A DNA stretch of 45,957 nucleotides, taken from the NCBI GenBank assembly GCA_037444665.1, contig JBBILZ010000015.1, forward strand, positions 1-45,957. Direction: 5' to 3'. Below the pieces are notes generated by a model. It did no database searches. It saw only the letters and a program-made list of their open reading frames with translations, and was not told where the DNA came from. The position numbers were made by a program, and so were the translations under genes. Shown in pieces: positions 6,129-12,463 of the stretch (positions within the stretch are counted from its first letter, which is position 1; each line of letters starts with the position of its first letter). Origin of the DNA: a candidate division WOR-3 bacterium (GTDB lineage: Bacteria; Hydrothermota; Tepidihabitantia; SM23-42; JAOAFX01).

Positions 6129-7387
6129 TTTTTCTTTTTGAAAGATTGATATACTGAAAGTAATGAATCGATATGTTCGTCAAACTGAGGCATTTTTGAA
6201 TCTGAATTATTTAGATTAACTTTTATATTTTGTGATATAATATCTTCCAATATTTTTGCCAAAGACTTCCAGTTTAAGGGTAAAAATAATAACCCATTTT
6301 TTTTAGTTTCCACTATCTCTAAGAATACTGAATGAGCGGGAGCAATGATGGGTACTTTATAAAATAATGCCTCGCGGGCAACAAAAGAAAATGTCTCATA
6401 GCACCTTGATGGCACAATCAAAAAATCCATTGATTTGTAGATTGCGGTTTTCATCGAATGATTAAATACACCCTTGAATTGAACATACCGGGATTCAGAC
6501 GGTCGTATTTGTTTACTCAAATTTAAATAATCCCCTTCACCATATATTAATAATTCAGCTCTGCCTCTATTGACATTCACAAACGCCTGGATGAGATCAC
6601 GAATACCTTTATGATTTTGAATACTACCGATATACCCAAAACGCACTTTATTATCAATTTCGCAAGGCTCTTTTCGGAAAGTTGGTAAATTCAAACTCAA
6701 TTGTAATAATAAAATTTTTTGTTCGCTTATTCCGGAGTTTAAATAGATTTGTTTCACGAAATCAGATGGCACAGTAATTAATGATACTTTTCTGAGCAAA
6801 GACATAATATATTGGTAACGCCATCGGTAAAAATTGTGTCTACGCTCTTTAGTAAACAAAATATCCCTGGAAAATGTTTTTAATTTATCCTTAAGTTCTA
6901 AATTTTTATTTATACAGAACGCACAATGTGCTCCATCATTATAATTTTCACAAATTTGACTGTCCCCATTATATAAATGAACGCGGGGACACAGAGTCCA
7001 AAAGTCGTGGATACTGAATATCACAGGAGTTTTAGATTCTATAGCTATTTCCAAACAGCTAAAGGGCAATCCCAGAAGGTGATGAAAATGAATTACATCT
7101 GGTTGAAATTGTTCAATCAATAATTTAAATCTTTCTTCGATATCTTTATCAAAAACTGAGTGTGGGTCATAAATAGGAAACCTTGCTGTAGGATTGATAG
7201 TATAGTTTAGCGGAACAGTAAAAATTTTTTTATTTTTGGCGTAAATATTAATATTTTTTCTATGAACCGGGAGGAAAACGGCTATCTCGTGATTTATCTC
7301 CAGTCTTTTGAATAGATTAGAGTAATAGACTAAAGTGCCACTCTGAGCGGGTTCCCAATATTTATGGACCACGAAAAGAATTTTCAT
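6125..7387 (-). CDS. Glycosyltransferase family 4
   Basis: MKILFVVH start (ATG 7387 preferred over TTG 7399), PDVIHFHHL, HDFWTLCPR, PSRCYETFSFVAREA. Confidence 0.9.
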   Translation of the reverse strand: MKILFVVHKYWEPAQSGTLVYYSNLFKRLEINHEIAVFLPVHRKNINIYAKNKKIFTVPLNYTINPTARFPIYDPHSVFDKDIEERFKLLIEQFQPDVIHFHHLLGLPFSCLEIAIESKTPVIFSIHDFWTLCPRVHLYNGDSQICENYNDGAHCAFCINKNLELKDKLKTFSRDILFTKERRHNFYRWRYQYIMSLLRKVSLITVPSDFVKQIYLNSGISEQKILLLQLSLNLPTFRKEPCEIDNKVRFGYIGSIQNHKGIRDLIQAFVNVNRGRAELLIYGEGDYLNLSKQIRPSESRYVQFKGVFNHSMKTAIYKSMDFLIVPSRCYETFSFVAREALFYKVPIIAPAHSVFLEIVETKKNGLLFLPLNWKSLAKILEDIISQNIKVNLNNSDSKMPQFDEHIDSLLSVYQSFKKKK

Positions 7388-7428
7388 GAGATAGTGCAAA
7401 TTTTTATTTCACATATTAACGAAACGAT

Positions 7429-7489
7429 TTCAAAATTTTTTTGAATCTCAGTTAGACCAAATCTACGAGTAATCATATCAAAGACCTCT
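7429..7489. repeat. Direct repeat copy 1: degenerate copy of the 3' part of the Zn-dehydrogenase gene
   Basis: 54/61 ungapped identity to 11495-11555, including a 28-bp perfect core TTTTTGAATCTCAGTTAGACCAAATCTA. Confidence 0.9.
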
Positions 7490-7597
7490 CTTTCTTGGGT
7501 TCAACCATATTTTGATTATAGCCAAAAATTCATTAACTGTCAATATATCGATATTACTGGCAATATACTTAAAAGTGTGGAAATTCTTCTTGAAATT

Positions 7598-7717
7598 AAA
7601 AGAAAAAGGTGTATCCTTCCTTATGTTATGTTTGATGTTTGTATTTTTAATGGATTTAAACAAAGCTCAGAAGAGCTTGAAAGGAGGATACACCCATGAA
7701 TCCATTAAATTATTCTA
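7598..7717 (-). ncRNA. Putative structured small RNA or attenuator next to the transposase
   Basis: Upstream TTGACA-N16-TAAGCT; stems 7699-7709/7646-7656 (11 bp) and 7681-7694/7608-7622 (14 bp, one bulge); hairpin 7663-7678; U-tract at 7598-7607. Confidence 0.5.
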
Positions 7718-7723
7718 AGGCTA

Positions 7724-7751
7724 AGCTTAATGAAATTTTTGCGGATGTCAA
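7724..7751 (-). promoter_or_regulatory. sigma70-type promoter facing away from the transposase
   Basis: TTGACA(7751-7746)-N16-TAAGCT(7729-7724). Confidence 0.55.
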
Positions 7752-7834
7752 GATGCCGATATTACTCAAAAATAATCTTACCGAAACTGGGTGGTTTAAT
7801 CAGAATAAAACTTCTTGTTAAGCTACTTGAAAAA

Positions 7835-7876
7835 ATGGGTGCCCCTGAGTATATTAAACATGAAAGGAGCACCCAT
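7835..7876 (+). promoter_or_regulatory. RBS/start-sequestering inverted repeat of the transposase
   Basis: ATGGGTGCCCCT (7835-7846) pairs 11/12 with AGGAGCACCCAT (7865-7876); candidate promoter TTGAAA(7827-32)-N17-TATATT(7850-55). Confidence 0.6.
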
Positions 7877-9179
7877 GATAAGTATTACTATACCAGGAGA
7901 ATTATATACCATGGAAGCAAAAAGGTCAATAATTAAAATCAATGCCGAACGTTATAAAAAGGCATCAAAAAAAGAGAAGAATGAAATGCTCAATGATTTA
8001 GAAGCGGTCGTCCAATTGCATCGTAAACACATTACCAAACTACTCAATAACACCAACAAAGTCTATTATACCCCCCAGGGCGTAAAACTGATTGGTGACC
8101 CAACAATCACCTTTACCCATAAACGAGGTCGTAAAAAGACCTACACTAAAGAATTAGTCCCTTATCTGGAAATTCTTTGGGAATTGAGTGGTTTCCGAGC
8201 TTCGCCGCATCTAATCTTTTTCATCCGCGAACACCAAAAAATGCTTTTTGAAAAGCCCGCTGATTTACAAGACCTTACCCCTGAAATGCAAACCAAACTT
8301 ACCAAACTTAATAATGCACCAGAACACATCCGCAAAAAACTACTCACAATCAGCCCTGCCACAGTTGACCGGCTCTTAAAAAAGACCAAAGCAAGGTGTC
8401 GTTTTGCCAGGACACATTATCCTCATCCGCATGCCTCGGTGATCAAAAAGAATATCCCGGTGGAAAGTTATTTTGATAAGCCTAAATATGGAAAGATTGG
8501 CTATCAGGAGACGGATTTGGTGCATCATTGTGATAGTAATACTCGTGGGGATTTTTGTTATACCCTAACGGATACGGAGATTAATACGGATTGGACTGAG
8601 CTGCGGGCGTTAAGGAATCGGGCTCAGGTGTGGACGGAAAGTGCCTTAAAGAGCATTGATCAATCAGTGCCTTTTGTGGTTCATAGCCGGCATGTAGATA
8701 ATGATTCAGTATTTATCAATGCCCATGTTTTGCGTTATGCGCAGCAATATGGGATAAATTATACGCGTTCACGGCCTTATCACAAAAATGATAATCCCTA
8801 TGTGGAAAGTCGGAACTGGACAATGGTGCGTAGTTATGTTGGTTATCGGCGCTATGAGACCGAAGCTGAGTATCGGATTTTAAAGGAATTAATGCTGCTC
8901 ATTTCCTTACGCCATAATTATTTTATTCCCACGCAGAAGCTGAGGCGGCGGGTGCGGGTGGGTGGTCATGTATATCGGGTTTACAATCTTGATACCCCTT
9001 ACAATCGGGTCTTAAAATCACCACAAGTGACAACAGAAAAGAAACAACAACTTCAAACAACCAAAGAATCACTTTCCTACTTTAAGATTGTGGACCAGAT
9101 CAATTCTTTACTTAAACAACTTGATCTTGCCTACCACAATAAATTTAGATATTATAAAAAGGATAAAAAAAATGACTAA
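7875..9179 (+). CDS. DDE-type transposase/integrase
   Basis: RYKKASKKEK N-terminus, ISPATVDRLL, catalytic ETDLVHHC / HVDNDSVF / KNDNPYVESRN; ATG 7875 has an AAGGAG RBS (7911 is an alternative). Confidence 0.9.
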   Translation: MISITIPGELYTMEAKRSIIKINAERYKKASKKEKNEMLNDLEAVVQLHRKHITKLLNNTNKVYYTPQGVKLIGDPTITFTHKRGRKKTYTKELVPYLEILWELSGFRASPHLIFFIREHQKMLFEKPADLQDLTPEMQTKLTKLNNAPEHIRKKLLTISPATVDRLLKKTKARCRFARTHYPHPHASVIKKNIPVESYFDKPKYGKIGYQETDLVHHCDSNTRGDFCYTLTDTEINTDWTELRALRNRAQVWTESALKSIDQSVPFVVHSRHVDNDSVFINAHVLRYAQQYGINYTRSRPYHKNDNPYVESRNWTMVRSYVGYRRYETEAEYRILKELMLLISLRHNYFIPTQKLRRRVRVGGHVYRVYNLDTPYNRVLKSPQVTTEKKQQLQTTKESLSYFKIVDQINSLLKQLDLAYHNKFRYYKKDKKND

Positions 9180-9266
9180 CTTATCCCCTTTTATTCTTGA
9201 AAATATTAATTTAATTTCGGTAAGATTTTATTTTGATGAAAGACGTTATACCCAATTACTCACTCA

Positions 9267-9294
9267 TTGACACCTTGATTCAAAATAATATAAT
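9267..9294 (+). promoter_or_regulatory. sigma70-type promoter, leaderless start
   Basis: TTGACA-N16-TATAAT; ATG 9301 lies 6 nt after the -10; no SD. Confidence 0.75.
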
Positions 9295-9300
9295 AATTCT

Positions 9301-11324
9301 ATGATAGGCAAGACTAATCGCCTGATTTTACTCTTTTTTATGTTTGTTTTATTTTTGCCATCATCTAATGGTGACGGTGTCTTGATAATCCATAAGGAAG
9401 CAGAGGAATTTTGCTATCCGGAAAAATGTGCAGAAATTACATTTGACAGGAATGCCACAAATAGTAGTTGTCTGGCAATTTTTACGACAAAACAAGAAAG
9501 GGGCAGTATAGTTACATCATTCAAAAGATTATCCGTAGGCATTTACCGCGTTGATTTTATTATTAAGGCACGCAATGATAAAGAAATAATTAATCCCATT
9601 TCAGTTATTAAAATTCTTTCGCGGGCAAAAAATCAAACCCATATCCTTGCACTTTATCCAATATATGCCTCTTATTTCAATACTGATTATGACTGGCAGG
9701 TTTTTGAAATCTTTTTCCGTCTTTCTGAACCTGAGGATAGTGTGCAGGCAATAATAGATTGGTTTGGCACTCTTGATTTGTTCATTGACTATGTAGAATT
9801 GTTGAAACTTTCTGATGATAAGAATATTGTTTATGCAATTAATCTCCATGACCTCAATCTGGACTCAAAAATTGAAAAATTTGATTATACAATGGCAGAC
9901 CGACGAATACTTCTGGCATCTATTCAGGCAGGTTTAAATAGAAAAAAACCGCGCCTTGTCCTACTTCACAACTATGATGATTATGAAGGCCAGGGCATAT
10001 ATCGCTGGCTAAAAAGGTTCAAAGTTTCTTATATCTTGATTACCTATGAGGATTGCTTGAAAAACCTTATATCAAAGGGAAATTTTAAGGGCTGTGTGCT
10101 CTTTAATCCTGGTAGTCCCGATTCTCTTGCCATCAAAGACCCGCCAGAATATCAAAAACTCCTATTCCAGGTGAAGGCAATTGCAACAAATCTGGCGGGA
10201 TTTGAATCCTTGATTTTAATTACCCCCCGCACAATTAATGATATACCTTTATCAAAATATCCAATAAAATATGACCTGACAGATGCTATGATCTAAGGGA
10301 TGGTTCTGATACCTCATTTTTTCATCTGAAGATTTTTGACAAAACCCATTATATTATGGGTTGGGCTGACGAAGGATGGGTTGATAATAAATATTATTGT
10401 AAGGAATATGAACAAATTAAATTGGCAAGTAAAGCCGGGAAGTTATGGATTGGTGATATGAATAGAATCCACAATCTATCATTCTTTTCAAAACTCCCTG
10501 CCGGAGGGATCAAATATAAGCAGCATAAAAAAGACCTAAATTTAAATCTTGAGCCAAAGGTCTATATTGCTTTTATTTCAATGGATGGCGATAATCCAGT
10601 TTTAACCCTTCAGCACTACTCCAAGGACTGGGACTCTCCATTGCGGGGCAAAATCCCGTTTACCTGGGGTATCCCACCCAAATTAATAGACCTTGCACCC
10701 GTAATCTTGGAATACTATTACAAAACAAGATCCACTAATGATTATTTTATTGCTGATGTGAGCGGACTTGGCTGGCATTTAACAAACCACTTTGATTTCA
10801 AAGACTTTTCCAATATGCCTAATATAACAGCATCTTATTTAAGAAAACTTGACATCAAGATTATTAAGCTTATGGGAGACAGGAACGATGACACAACAAA
10901 TCTCTATTATATGAAAAGAATTATAGATGCCTATCCTGAGATGCTTGGATTTTTAGATGGCTATTGGCCGCCTGAAGAACAGGGTTATATAATGGTAAAA
11001 GATAGTTATCCCTCAGTAAGGCTTGCAATAAACAGGCCTCTAAGACATTTAGGTGACACCACCGATATATCAGCACTCGCCGATGCGATTACCAATACAA
11101 TAAATGAGAATAAAAATAGGCCGCTGTTTTTGCCGGTCATCTACAATATTTATAATCCACATTATACAGTCAATACATCCATCTTTGAGAAATTAAAAAT
11201 GATACAGAAAATACTTAACAGTAGACATACTGATGTTGAATATGTGACTCTTGATGTAATGATGGAACTGATAAGAGGATATAATAAAAGACTAATTGAA
11301 CAAGGAAATAATCCCAAAAATTAA
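9301..11324 (+). pseudogene. Secreted GxGYxYP-family putative glycoside hydrolase, split into 9301-10296 and 10356-11324
   Basis: Signal peptide and LASIQAGLNRKKPRL in part 1; MGW, HNLSFFS, IAFISMDGDN, RGKIPFTW, LEYYY and SGLGW in part 2; different frames, with the part-2 frame open from 10275. Confidence 0.6.
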
Positions 11325-11437: not shown

Positions 11438-12463
11438 TTACACCCTCTGGGGTTCAATGATGACCTTGAGTGATTTATCTGCCTTTTCCACAAGTTCAAA
11501 TCCTTTTTGAATCTCAGTTAGACCAAATCTATGTGTAATCATATCAAGGACATCTATTTTTTTGTTTTTTAATAGTTCAATCGCCTCAATTATATCCTGG
11601 GCAACTGCGGCATAGGAAAAAACAATCCTCACGCCCTTGAAATACAGGTCAAAAAGGGGTAAAGGAATACGCACATCAGGTGCAGTAGGCGCAAATAGAA
11701 GCAGGGTTCCAGCACGGTCAACAGAAGAAAATGCCTGTTCAAATGCACTGAGTGCAGTAGTATTAACAATTACCAGGTCAGCCAATCTGTTAGCGTTCAT
11801 TTTTTTTAATAGTCCAGGCACATCATCATTTGCATTAATCACCTCTGCCCCACACCTGTGTGCAAAGTTTAACCGATATTCATTAATGTCTGTGGCGAAA
11901 ATTTTTTTTACGCCCATTGCCTTTGCCAGTTTGATATGTAGTATACCAGCAATCCCAGAACCAATGACAAGCACACTCTCACACTGATCTATGTCAGCAA
12001 AGCGCTGGCCCCTGATAACACAACCCAGAGGTTCAATAAATGTCCCTTCTTCATAACTTATTTCATCAGGAAGCAAAAAGGTCCCAAATTTCACATTGAT
12101 TTCAGGAACACGCACACACTGGGAAAAGCCTCCCGGGTCAAAATTGGTCTTTTTCAATGTCTCACATACTGTATGAAAACCTTTCTTACAATACCTGCAT
12201 TCATTACAGGGCACATGGTGTGATACAAATACCCTATCACCAATTTTAAAATTTTTTATATTCTTTCCTTTTTTTATTATTTCTCCGGCAATCTCATGCC
12301 CTAATACCCTTGGTGCACTCTTTACCCTGTACCATTCCATTACATCACTGCCACATATTCCACAGGCAATGACCTTTACCAGTAGTTCGTTATCACCAAT
12401 TTCAGGTATTGGTCTTTCTTCTATTCTTATATCGTGGTTATTGTAATAGACTGCAACACGCAA
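11438..12463 (-). CDS. Zinc-dependent (sugar-alcohol/threonine-type) MDR dehydrogenase
   Basis: CGICGSD, GHE, C-x2-C-x2-C-x7-C, VIGSGIAG; TTG start after GAGG. Confidence 0.92.
   Translation of the reverse strand: MRVAVYYNNHDIRIEERPIPEIGDNELLVKVIACGICGSDVMEWYRVKSAPRVLGHEIAGEIIKKGKNIKNFKIGDRVFVSHHVPCNECRYCKKGFHTVCETLKKTNFDPGGFSQCVRVPEINVKFGTFLLPDEISYEEGTFIEPLGCVIRGQRFADIDQCESVLVIGSGIAGILHIKLAKAMGVKKIFATDINEYRLNFAHRCGAEVINANDDVPGLLKKMNANRLADLVIVNTTALSAFEQAFSSVDRAGTLLLFAPTAPDVRIPLPLFDLYFKGVRIVFSYAAVAQDIIEAIELLKNKKIDVLDMITHRFGLTEIQKGFELVEKADKSLKVIIEPQRV
11495..11555. repeat. Direct repeat copy 2, inside the 3' end of the dehydrogenase gene
   Basis: Matches 7429-7489. Confidence 0.9.

Follow-up and report, generated by a model that had tools for sequence, protein, structure and literature searches.

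The described systems that come closest to the one presented here are those of the insertion sequences (IS) IS10 and IS200 and of the IS256 of Enterococcus faecalis. IS10 uses the facing promoters pIN and pOUT and the antisense RNA-OUT, and IS200 combines sequestration of the Shine-Dalgarno (SD) sequence with the antisense RNA art200, as outlined in the portions of the two accounts drawn on here (PMC5006887, PMC4513863). For the IS256 of E. faecalis, the part of the report relied on here describes a 5′ antisense RNA ('site 1') that is made from a sigma-70-type promoter and overlies the start of the transposase transcript; removal of the −10 hexamer raised both Tnp-GFP and tnp RNA (Kirsch et al. 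2023, PMC10266640). We analysed a contig of 45,957 nucleotides from a candidate division WOR-3 bacterium (JBBILZ010000015.1, assembly GCA_037444665.1), which is called the window at its full length. An initial annotation of this DNA had proposed, next to a transposase gene, a pseudoknotted small RNA (sRNA) on the minus strand that is complementary to the translation start of that transposase. The comparison with related genomes indicates that the structure at 7598–7751 is probably the expression-control module of a dead IS256-family insertion sequence rather than an sRNA gene in its own right.

A truncated IS256-family left end

Judged by its homology to full-length elements, the region 7559–7755 is the left end of an IS256-family insertion sequence and not a free-standing gene. 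It retains the left terminal inverted repeat (IRL), a putative promoter of its own, a 72-nt leader, an SD sequence, the ATG at 7696 and about 19 codons; the remaining element has been lost. The plus-strand SD AAGGAGG (7681–7687) and this ATG open a reading frame (ORF) of 41 codons, which the initial annotation had overlooked. A DNA search with 7530–7760 was positive in 24 of 61 related genomes, with many of the matches located at the ends of contigs. In the relatives the leader runs into ORFs of 396–398 amino acids (L045, L049 and L051) that start with MNPFNYSQAKLNQIFSDVKV or MNPFNYSQAKLNQIFSDVKVLYQDD, and the ~19 codons of the window align with the full ORF of L045. The protein of L045 scores 317 bits with NCBIfam NF033543 (cut-off 150) and 303 bits with Pfam PF00872 (cut-off 21), which assigns it to the IS256 family with its Mutator-type DDE transposases. 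The homology between the window and the IS256-like relatives stops at GATGTCAAG (7743–7751). The full copies have 27-bp terminal repeats of the form GGTAGTG...TTGTGTGTAAATT; the IRL and the right repeat (IRR) are both present in L045, L049 and L051, and the IRR abuts the stop codon. Target duplications of 8–9 bp are known from these relatives (GGCGGTCAG in L045 and GCGAAGCG in L049). The window retains the IRL only and has no right end. The copies were collected by DNA searches of the genomes, in place of a related-locus search of genome contigs that gave five loci, two of them with the leader. The leader alignment consists of 26 IS256-like copies; L053 and L093 as well as the partial copies L005, L082, L087 and L091 were left out.

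Parts of the relic recur in the same genome: 7559–7609 at C42:11624 (98% identity), 7603–7625 at C4:79776 (100%) and 7576–7658 at C96 (78–87%). The C4 copy has the layout of the window, with the arm, the loop and the SD arm followed by ATG GAT AAT CCA TTT AAT TAT. The four IS256-like relics of this genome each end at a different point, as decay predicts, rather than selection. The remainder of the IS256-like gene was not found at 9246, beyond the neighbouring insertion sequence with a transposase of the rve type, and a tblastn search of this assembly with the full IS256-like protein matched the stub in the window only. The N-terminal 100 amino acids of the protein were found in 23 of 272 genomes of the phylum, and not in the present one (G000). 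As no intact IS256-like gene was found in this genome, the relic is probably a decaying fossil. It would have lost everything beyond codon ~19, where the rve-type IS (7757–9245) now sits. The region is the 5′ end of a different insertion sequence, and the earlier idea of a separate gene, divergent from the neighbouring transposase, has to be given up.

Predicted control signals in the leaders of the two elements

Every sequence feature named in the initial annotation was located, at the coordinates it gave, by reading the window sequence directly. On the minus strand TTGACA-N16-TAAGCT runs from 7751 to 7724 (plus-strand letters TGTCAA at 7746–7751 and AGCTTA at 7724–7729). Helix A is a perfect complement of 11 bp between 7646–7656 (TTTAATGGATT) and 7699–7709 (AATCCATTAAA); helix B consists of 14 bp between 7608–7622 and 7681–7694 with a bulged T at 7618, and for this helix the inverted-repeat listing and the minimum free energy (MFE) folds agree. 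The two helices cross in the order A-B-A′-B′, as had been noticed. A 6-bp hairpin (AAGCTC-AGAA-GAGCTT) is present at 7663–7678, the tail at 7598–7607 reads TTTTTCTTTT on the minus strand, and 7678–7699 equals 7861–7878 except for the four nucleotides GATA. What had been called a CAAACAU-repeat linker is part of a loop that is not alignable among the copies and ranges in length from 14 to 84 nt. The MFE of the minus-strand RNA 7716–7598 is −28.3 kcal/mol (z −4.58; equalled in 0 of 200 dinucleotide shuffles), and that of the plus strand of this 119-nt stretch is −31.5 kcal/mol (z −3.80; 1 of 200). Because every pair of both helices is of the Watson-Crick type, the window alone does not decide which strand folds. 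A search of Rfam with 7000–9600 on both strands gave three matches, all with E values of at least 1.4 and far under the gathering scores.

In every one of the 26 copies the TATCCT of the putative plus-strand transposase promoter keeps the same distance to the IRL, about 49 nt, and 17 of the copies have a −35 hexamer with at least four of six matches at N16 upstream of it. The 5′ arm of helix B, which is complementary to the SD region, overlaps this −10 box; the arm should therefore be missing from the element's own mRNA, and helix B would form in read-through transcripts only. In the 26 copies 90.6% of the 363 cells of helix B are paired, compared to 44–61% with a slid partner, and the degenerate copy L047 has a double compensatory change. 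The position of the upstream arm and the geometry of the inverted repeat suggest fold-back inhibition, in which the 3′ arm would cover the ribosome-binding site (RBS) and the 5′ arm lies at the predicted transcription start or upstream of it. Because the loops are not alignable, helix A was evaluated copy by copy, and in 9 of the 26 copies it outperforms shuffled loops at p ≤ 0.05; the duplex of the window has −13.7 kcal/mol (p 0.003), and L085 forms a helix of 13 bp over quite different codons (p 0.003). In L051 and L083 ATGGGTT pairs with AACCCAT, where the window has ATGGATT with AATCCAT. Helix A is absent, among the 26 copies, from L049/L050, L054, L080, L089 and the distant group L074–L079. 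These different solutions, together with the absences elsewhere, indicate that helix A arose repeatedly and independently within one subgroup. Formed on the plus strand, it would cover the AUG region of the mRNA that the element itself makes. A hairpin comparable to the one that directly precedes the SD in the window was seen in L053 and L054.

A promoter scan of 7350–7950 gave 5 promoter-like sites (3.1 ± 1.6 in shuffles). The minus-strand promoter of the initial annotation is missing from this list because its −10 hexamer, TAAGCT, has only three of six matches. At the homologous place, 15 of the 24 copies examined have a −35 hexamer with at least five of six matches and a TAnnnT-type −10 at a spacing of N16–17. 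The fifteen include the distant copies L074 (TTGACT-N16-TATATT) and L078 (TTGACC-N16-CATACT), in which different codons provide the −10. The nine misses include four truncated relics and four copies (L075–L077 and L079) with the −35 outside the 63-nt segment used; by eye, L075 has TTGAAC-N16-TATATT. On the minus strand, helix B and the U-tract behind it resemble a terminator that would end a cis-antisense RNA. The corresponding sequence of L045 has a 14-bp hairpin and then AUUUUUUGUUUUUUUC (minus-strand z −5.34), and in L075 a long, largely G+C-rich stem and then CUUUUUCC (minus-strand z −4.42). The distant group has a separate, largely G+C-rich hairpin that surrounds the arm, again with CUUUUUCC, and this hairpin is found on the minus strand only. 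At least six A in the 10 nt before the arm, corresponding to a U-run on the minus strand, are present in 17 of the 26 copies. An antisense RNA of the IS256-like element is plausible, and there is precedent for it. In so far as the initial annotation envisaged a short RNA from the minus strand, with its promoter, long hairpin and U-tail, that would act on a transposase start in the manner of RNA-OUT, it is reasonable, and the position of the promoter is conserved in the relatives. The notion of a 'non-overlapping, separately encoded' regulator was not borne out: the natural target would be the overlapping mRNA of the element's own IS256-type transposase, and the claimed novelty of such a regulator is therefore lost.

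In intact relatives the module would comprise three layers, as in IS10 and IS200. The element's own mRNA would begin just past the upstream arm, and transcripts reading through from the host would carry the arm and have their SD sequestered by helix B (fold-back). Within the own mRNA, pairing of the loop segment with the AUG-proximal codons in helix A would damp translation. The minus-strand promoter in codons 10–19 would yield a short cis-antisense RNA over the AUG and the SD, ended by the same inverted repeat and the U-run. The features are collected in Table 1.

Table 1. Coordinates of the features discussed, with the observations on which each is based. pIN and pOUT are the promoter names used for IS10.
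Feature	Position	Strand	Basis
Truncated IS256-family left end (IRL, leader, codons 1–19)	7559–7755	+	Homology to full elements of relatives
Left terminal inverted repeat (IRL), 27 bp, GGCAATATACTTAAAAGTGTGGAAATT	7559–7585	+	Three copies in G017 diverge immediately left
Putative transposase promoter (pIN), TTGAAA-N16-TATCCT	7590–7617	+	Promoter scan 9/12; start site predicted
Anti-SD arm, 5′ arm of helix B, GGTGTATCCTTCCTT	7608–7622	+	Overlaps −10 box 7612–7617
Loop segment complementary to codons 2–5, 5′ arm of helix A	7646–7656	+	11 bp, perfect
6-bp hairpin directly 5′ of the SD	7663–7678	+	Sequence and folds
SD arm (AAAGGAGGATACACC) and ATG 7696 of the truncated IS256-type transposase gene	7680–7698	+	Sequence, alignment of relatives
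Codons 2–5 (AATCCATTAAA), 3′ arm of helix A	7699–7709	+	Perfect complement
Putative antisense promoter (pOUT-like), TTGACA-N16-TAAGCT	7724–7751	−	Within codons 10–19 (KLN...DVK) of the IS256-type gene
Predicted cis-antisense RNA: 5′ tail against AUG and codons 1–7, helix-B hairpin, UUUUUCUUUU	7598–7716	−	Fold z −4.58
Host promoter of the GT4 glycosyltransferase gene (ATG 7387)	7515–7543	−	12/12; 15 nt outside the IRL, not part of the element
rve-type (DDE integrase-fold) multicopy IS of candidate division WOR-3	7757–9245	+	Depth, divergence points, terminal repeats
Promoter of the rve-type transposase, TTGAAA-N17-TATATT	7827–7855	+	Scan 10/12; spacer holds the anti-SD arm 7835–7846
SD, spacer and ATG (7875) of the rve-type transposase	7865–7877	+	7865–7876 pairs with 7835–7846
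rve-type transposase gene, 434 amino acids	7875–9179	+	ORF, profile matches
Putative antisense promoter of the rve-type IS, TTGACC-N17-TATAAT	7901–7929	−	Scan 11/12; codons 9–18

The neighbouring rve-type IS has control signals of its own. In 16 aligned leaders the segment between the −35 (7827) and the −10 (7850) pairs with the SD, the spacer and the AT of the ATG. In this helix 90.1% of the cells are paired, compared to 80.3% in shuffles (reached in 0 of 500), and only 40–56.5% in controls slid by 1–3 columns. Four pairs, with 19 cells, are changed on both sides; 19 cells were obtained in 0 of 500 shuffles and four pairs in 56 of 500. The covariation score is 0.290 versus 0.099. At one pair 8 of the 16 copies have a C.A on the plus strand, which is a G.U on the minus strand, and in total there are 11 G.U and 10 mismatches when the helix is read on the minus strand, as against 2 and 19 on the plus strand. 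A minus-strand TTGA(C/T)C-N17-TATA(C/A)T is found at the same place in 17 of 17 rve-type copies, and the minus-strand fold of 7894–7822 gives a 12-bp hairpin and then UUUUUUC (z −3.28). The rve-type IS and the IS256-like family, which are unrelated, thus appear to share an IS10-like design.

Competing explanations and the match to the rve-type start

A reading in which only plus-strand structures matter dispenses with the antisense RNA: helices A and B would mask the SD and the AUG in the transposase mRNA, and the minus-strand 'promoter' and the U-run would be side effects of codon conservation and of an A-rich spacer in the promoter. We consider this unlikely, though it draws on the location of the SD and the AUG inside helices and on the stability of helix A: in the window and in L041–L043 the plus-strand version is the more stable one by 2.3–3.5 kcal/mol, in part because of G.U pairs whose minus-strand counterparts would be A.C. 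A number of observations weigh against the three-layer module proposed above; among them, the weak antisense −10 and the synonymous-codon comparison count for the plus-strand reading as well. The antisense −10 falls below the scan threshold, and both antisense hexamers lie in conserved codons (KLN and DVK), so that protein constraint could account for them. In the four rve-type genes compared, synonymous-codon identity over the antisense promoter (columns 13–24) is 35 of 50, a modest excess (0.70 versus 0.54 overall, with 0.62–0.65 in other intervals). The hairpin loop of 57 nt in the window is long for an intrinsic terminator; a terminator scan of the region, with its loop limit of 8, found none. 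The G.U pairs and mismatches of the IS256-like helix (16 G.U and 34 mismatches on the plus strand, 9 and 41 on the minus strand) give no strand call. Helix B itself has a covariation score of 0.095, compared to 0.096–0.097 in the slid controls; both arms are nearly invariant, and the alignment therefore neither proves nor disproves the pairing. Conservation of the 5′ arm may reflect its role as a −10 box, and that of the 3′ arm its role as an SD; in distant copies (rows of the L074 and L078 type) the 5′ arm is unchanged while the pairing decays. What speaks for a minus-strand RNA nevertheless is that the promoter position is kept in distant copies in which other codons give the −10, that the long, largely G+C-rich hairpin with U-run of the L075 group exists only on the minus strand, and that the rve-type helix has 11 G.U on the minus strand versus 2 on the plus strand, including the C.A in half of the copies; in addition, a 5′ antisense RNA was found experimentally for IS256, in the part of that report cited above. 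That the 5′ arm keeps a distance of ~49 nt to the IRL throughout the 26 copies can also be read at the level of DNA. The arms, taken as one direct and one inverted repetition of the outer part of the terminal repeat, would then give the transposase additional binding sites, serving transpososome assembly or autorepression of the promoter, with the RNA pairing incidental. The arm does resemble the terminus of the IRL (for instance, GGTAGTATACTTTAT versus GGTGTATCCTTCTAT in L049) and its sequence is conserved even where pairing decays. The right end, however, is without internal copies and the IRR abuts the stop codon; the compensatory changes of the rve-type IS are explained by base pairing alone, and the double change in L047 fits pairing as well. 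We regard a DNA-level function as quite improbable. The initial annotation had also offered an attenuator of the downstream GT4/GT2 genes, and a host attenuator or insulator would use the minus-strand hairpin and U-run upstream of GT4 to stop transcription leaving the IS region. This we find scarcely credible: the structure lies outside the GT4 leader because the GT4 gene has its own promoter (12/12, 7543–7515) downstream of it, the same element stands beside unrelated genes in other loci and genomes, and the close relative G008 has the neighbouring locus without the element.

There remains the model of the initial annotation, in which a separate, non-overlapping minus-strand sRNA, a pseudoknot or switch, represses the rve-type transposase through 9+9 bp over its SD and AUG. 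The identity is real. In duplexes with the 5′ half of the predicted antisense RNA the rve start has −29.4, against a mean of −17.6 (standard deviation 4.1), and ranks 8th of 982 SD-bearing ORF starts, a noteworthy match but not a singular one. Of the 18 bases in common, nine form the SD block TGAAAGGAG, present in every copy of either family, and the remainder is CACCCATGA; half of the match is thus an SD common to both families. The base before the ATG is C in both leaders of the window and T in both in G001 and G010, a single coincident change, and G001 (L092) has a rve-type remnant just inside an IS256-like relic, a second nested pair. Against the model, the region is part of a different IS family and is met again in places that have no rve-type IS. 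If it were a regulator of the rve-type transposase, it would be expected upstream of that gene's homologues. It is absent from all 16 rve-type copies retrieved, the window's own copy apart, and the readable flanks have a host promoter in 11 of the 12 scored; it is also absent before two partial rve-type copies in the same genome (C42 and C41). The rve-type IS owns a covarying control module, and the relics in this genome are truncated at varied points, which fits decay, not selection. We consider the model very improbable. As improbable, in our view, is the variant in which the relic is kept because its antisense RNA still acts in trans and cross-represses the co-resident, multicopy rve-type IS via the 9+9 bp over SD and AUG. 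If true, the abandoned 'RNA-OUT' of one transposon family would police another, and the nested position, the shared C and the second nested pair would fit. A new class of trans-encoded, non-overlapping transposase regulator is not supported. The module of a dead IS256-family element is the reading that we retain, and the result removes a false lead.

Three further observations concern the contact between the two families. The base before the ATG (7695 and 7874) is, by eye, T in both families in G004 as well, and the families differ in G016 and G025. The rve-type copy of L092 (G001:C52) is internally deleted and lies ~70 nt inside the IS256-like relic. The right flank of L051 (G016:C3) has a rve-type end fragment beside the IS256-like IRR.

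Host promoters beside the elements and likeness to known systems

The boundaries of the rve-type IS were taken from its terminal inverted repeats at ~7757–7786 (CGATATTACTCAAAAATAATCTTACCGAAA) and 9216–9245, from the points at which other copies diverge (7757/7758 and 9245/9246), and from contig depth, which in the run with the best coverage is 56.7 over 7823–9245 and 15.1 and 13.2 in the flanks; the DNA contigs of the sequencing runs served for IS boundaries and copy depth only. A search for runs listed ten from four studies, with no RNA run among those that hold this sequence. The transposase scores 21 bits with Pfam rve and 28 bits with IS481, both below cut-off, and a search of solved structures gave weak matches to integrase cores only (E values of at least 0.066). 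It has 178 relatives, mostly on contigs of ~1.5 kb; the few source names read transposase and candidate division WOR-3. Termini at TGTCAA 7746 and TTGACA 9267 (5′-TG...CA-3′) were considered for this element and dropped in view of the divergence points. The direct repeat 7538–7558/7746–7766 was rejected as a duplication; it consists of two −35 boxes, each followed by a different IS end. A 99% copy of window 7757–7852 at C42:21071–21178 (L002) is split by another element; by eye, the ends of that element are of the TGAACTGCGCCCC type, and it encodes, on the opposite strand, a protein with an integrase fold that is IS3-like.

Each of the two IS families has host sigma-70-type promoters at a fixed distance, facing away from the element. 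The left flank of the IS256-like element has an outward promoter of at least 9/12 in 20 of the 26 copies, and in 15 of the 26 its −35 starts exactly 15–16 nt from the IRL; L049 has its promoter at the right end, again 15 nt away. For the rve-type IS the distance between the IS end and the start of a TTGAC-type −35 (N16 spacing) is exactly 5 nt in 10 of 12 copies, and in the window this −35 is the TTGACA of the relic's putative antisense promoter. Such a promoter occurs in 9.8% of random 80-nt windows. The flanking genes differ (tRNA, various ORFs, GT4), and the promoters are therefore those of the host. The simplest reading is a sequence-specific target (GTCAA) combined with purifying selection; insertion guided by the polymerase or the promoter could also produce this pattern. 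A limited literature search on promoter-targeted IS insertion and on IS elements in WOR-3 found nothing relevant. To our knowledge, distance-specific insertion beside promoters is not a textbook property of bacterial IS elements, and the fixed distance of two IS families from host −35 hexamers is maybe the more useful lead.

On the right-hand side of the rve-type IS, TTGACA-N16-TATAAT at 9267–9294, 22 nt outside the right end, drives a GxGYxYP-domain gene (ATG 9301). The same right-flank promoter is present in G008 (97% identity) without the IS, and in G008 a second, divergent −35 lies 12 nt away before a Wzz-like gene. A reconstruction of the empty site was abandoned: G008, in which the right-hand gene is 97% identical, has another left neighbour, so that the pre-insertion sequence is not readable. 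A 44-nt stretch of the 5′ leader of GT4 (7438–7481) recurs 4 kb downstream at 11504–11547 with 95% identity, inside or beside an ORF at 11438–12463 on the minus strand.

The likeness of the WOR-3 module to known systems can now be specified. To the extent that the two accounts cover it, IS200 is similar in combining sequestration of the SD in the mRNA with a cis antisense RNA of ~90 nt over the 5′ untranslated region and the first codons (PMC4513863). It differs in its Y1-family transposase and in having the SD stem-loop in its own mRNA, whereas the main SD helix is here expected in read-through transcripts only. The IS256 of E. faecalis belongs to the same family as the WOR-3 relic, but its protein is ~32% identical to those of the WOR-3 elements and the leaders have no detectable similarity; neither a fold-back helix nor a first-codon helix is described in the part of that report considered here (PMC10266640). 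A prototype IS256 copy on an E. faecium plasmid (L098) has a perfect complement of 9 nt between the IRL (145–153) and the spacer between SD and ATG (219–227), which suggests that fold-back masking may be general in the IS256 family.

With IS10/Tn10 the module would have in common the promoters that face each other at the transposase start and a short antisense RNA, here predicted, with one long hairpin that overlaps the SD and the AUG, as far as these features are set out in the passages cited (PMC5006887, PMC4513863). In the window the facing promoters are consensus matches at conserved places, with the weak antisense −10 noted above, and a stable stem-loop with its own 3′ end is predicted for the window, L045 and L075. 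As in IS10, read-through transcripts could have their RBS masked by the same inverted repeat, whose outer arm lies at the element's own start or upstream of it. This fold-back inhibition of IS10 was reportedly described by Davis, Simons and Kleckner in 1985. The transposases differ (IS256 type in WOR-3, IS4 type in IS10), and so does the way in which pairing would start: the loop of RNA-OUT pairs with the 5′ end of RNA-IN, whereas in the predicted WOR-3 fold the SD-complementary bases sit in the stem, which leaves the 5′ tail as the only free part. The WOR-3 element has an extra helix A over codons 2–5; no GATC (Dam) sites were noted in it. Overall, two unrelated IS families of an uncultured phylum would each carry an IS10-like module, composed of an anti-SD arm embedded in the promoter, a masked start codon and a probable antisense RNA, with good covariation in the rve-type IS. 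The classic paradigm from Escherichia coli would thereby extend to distant lineages, in which the two families offer clean natural test cases.

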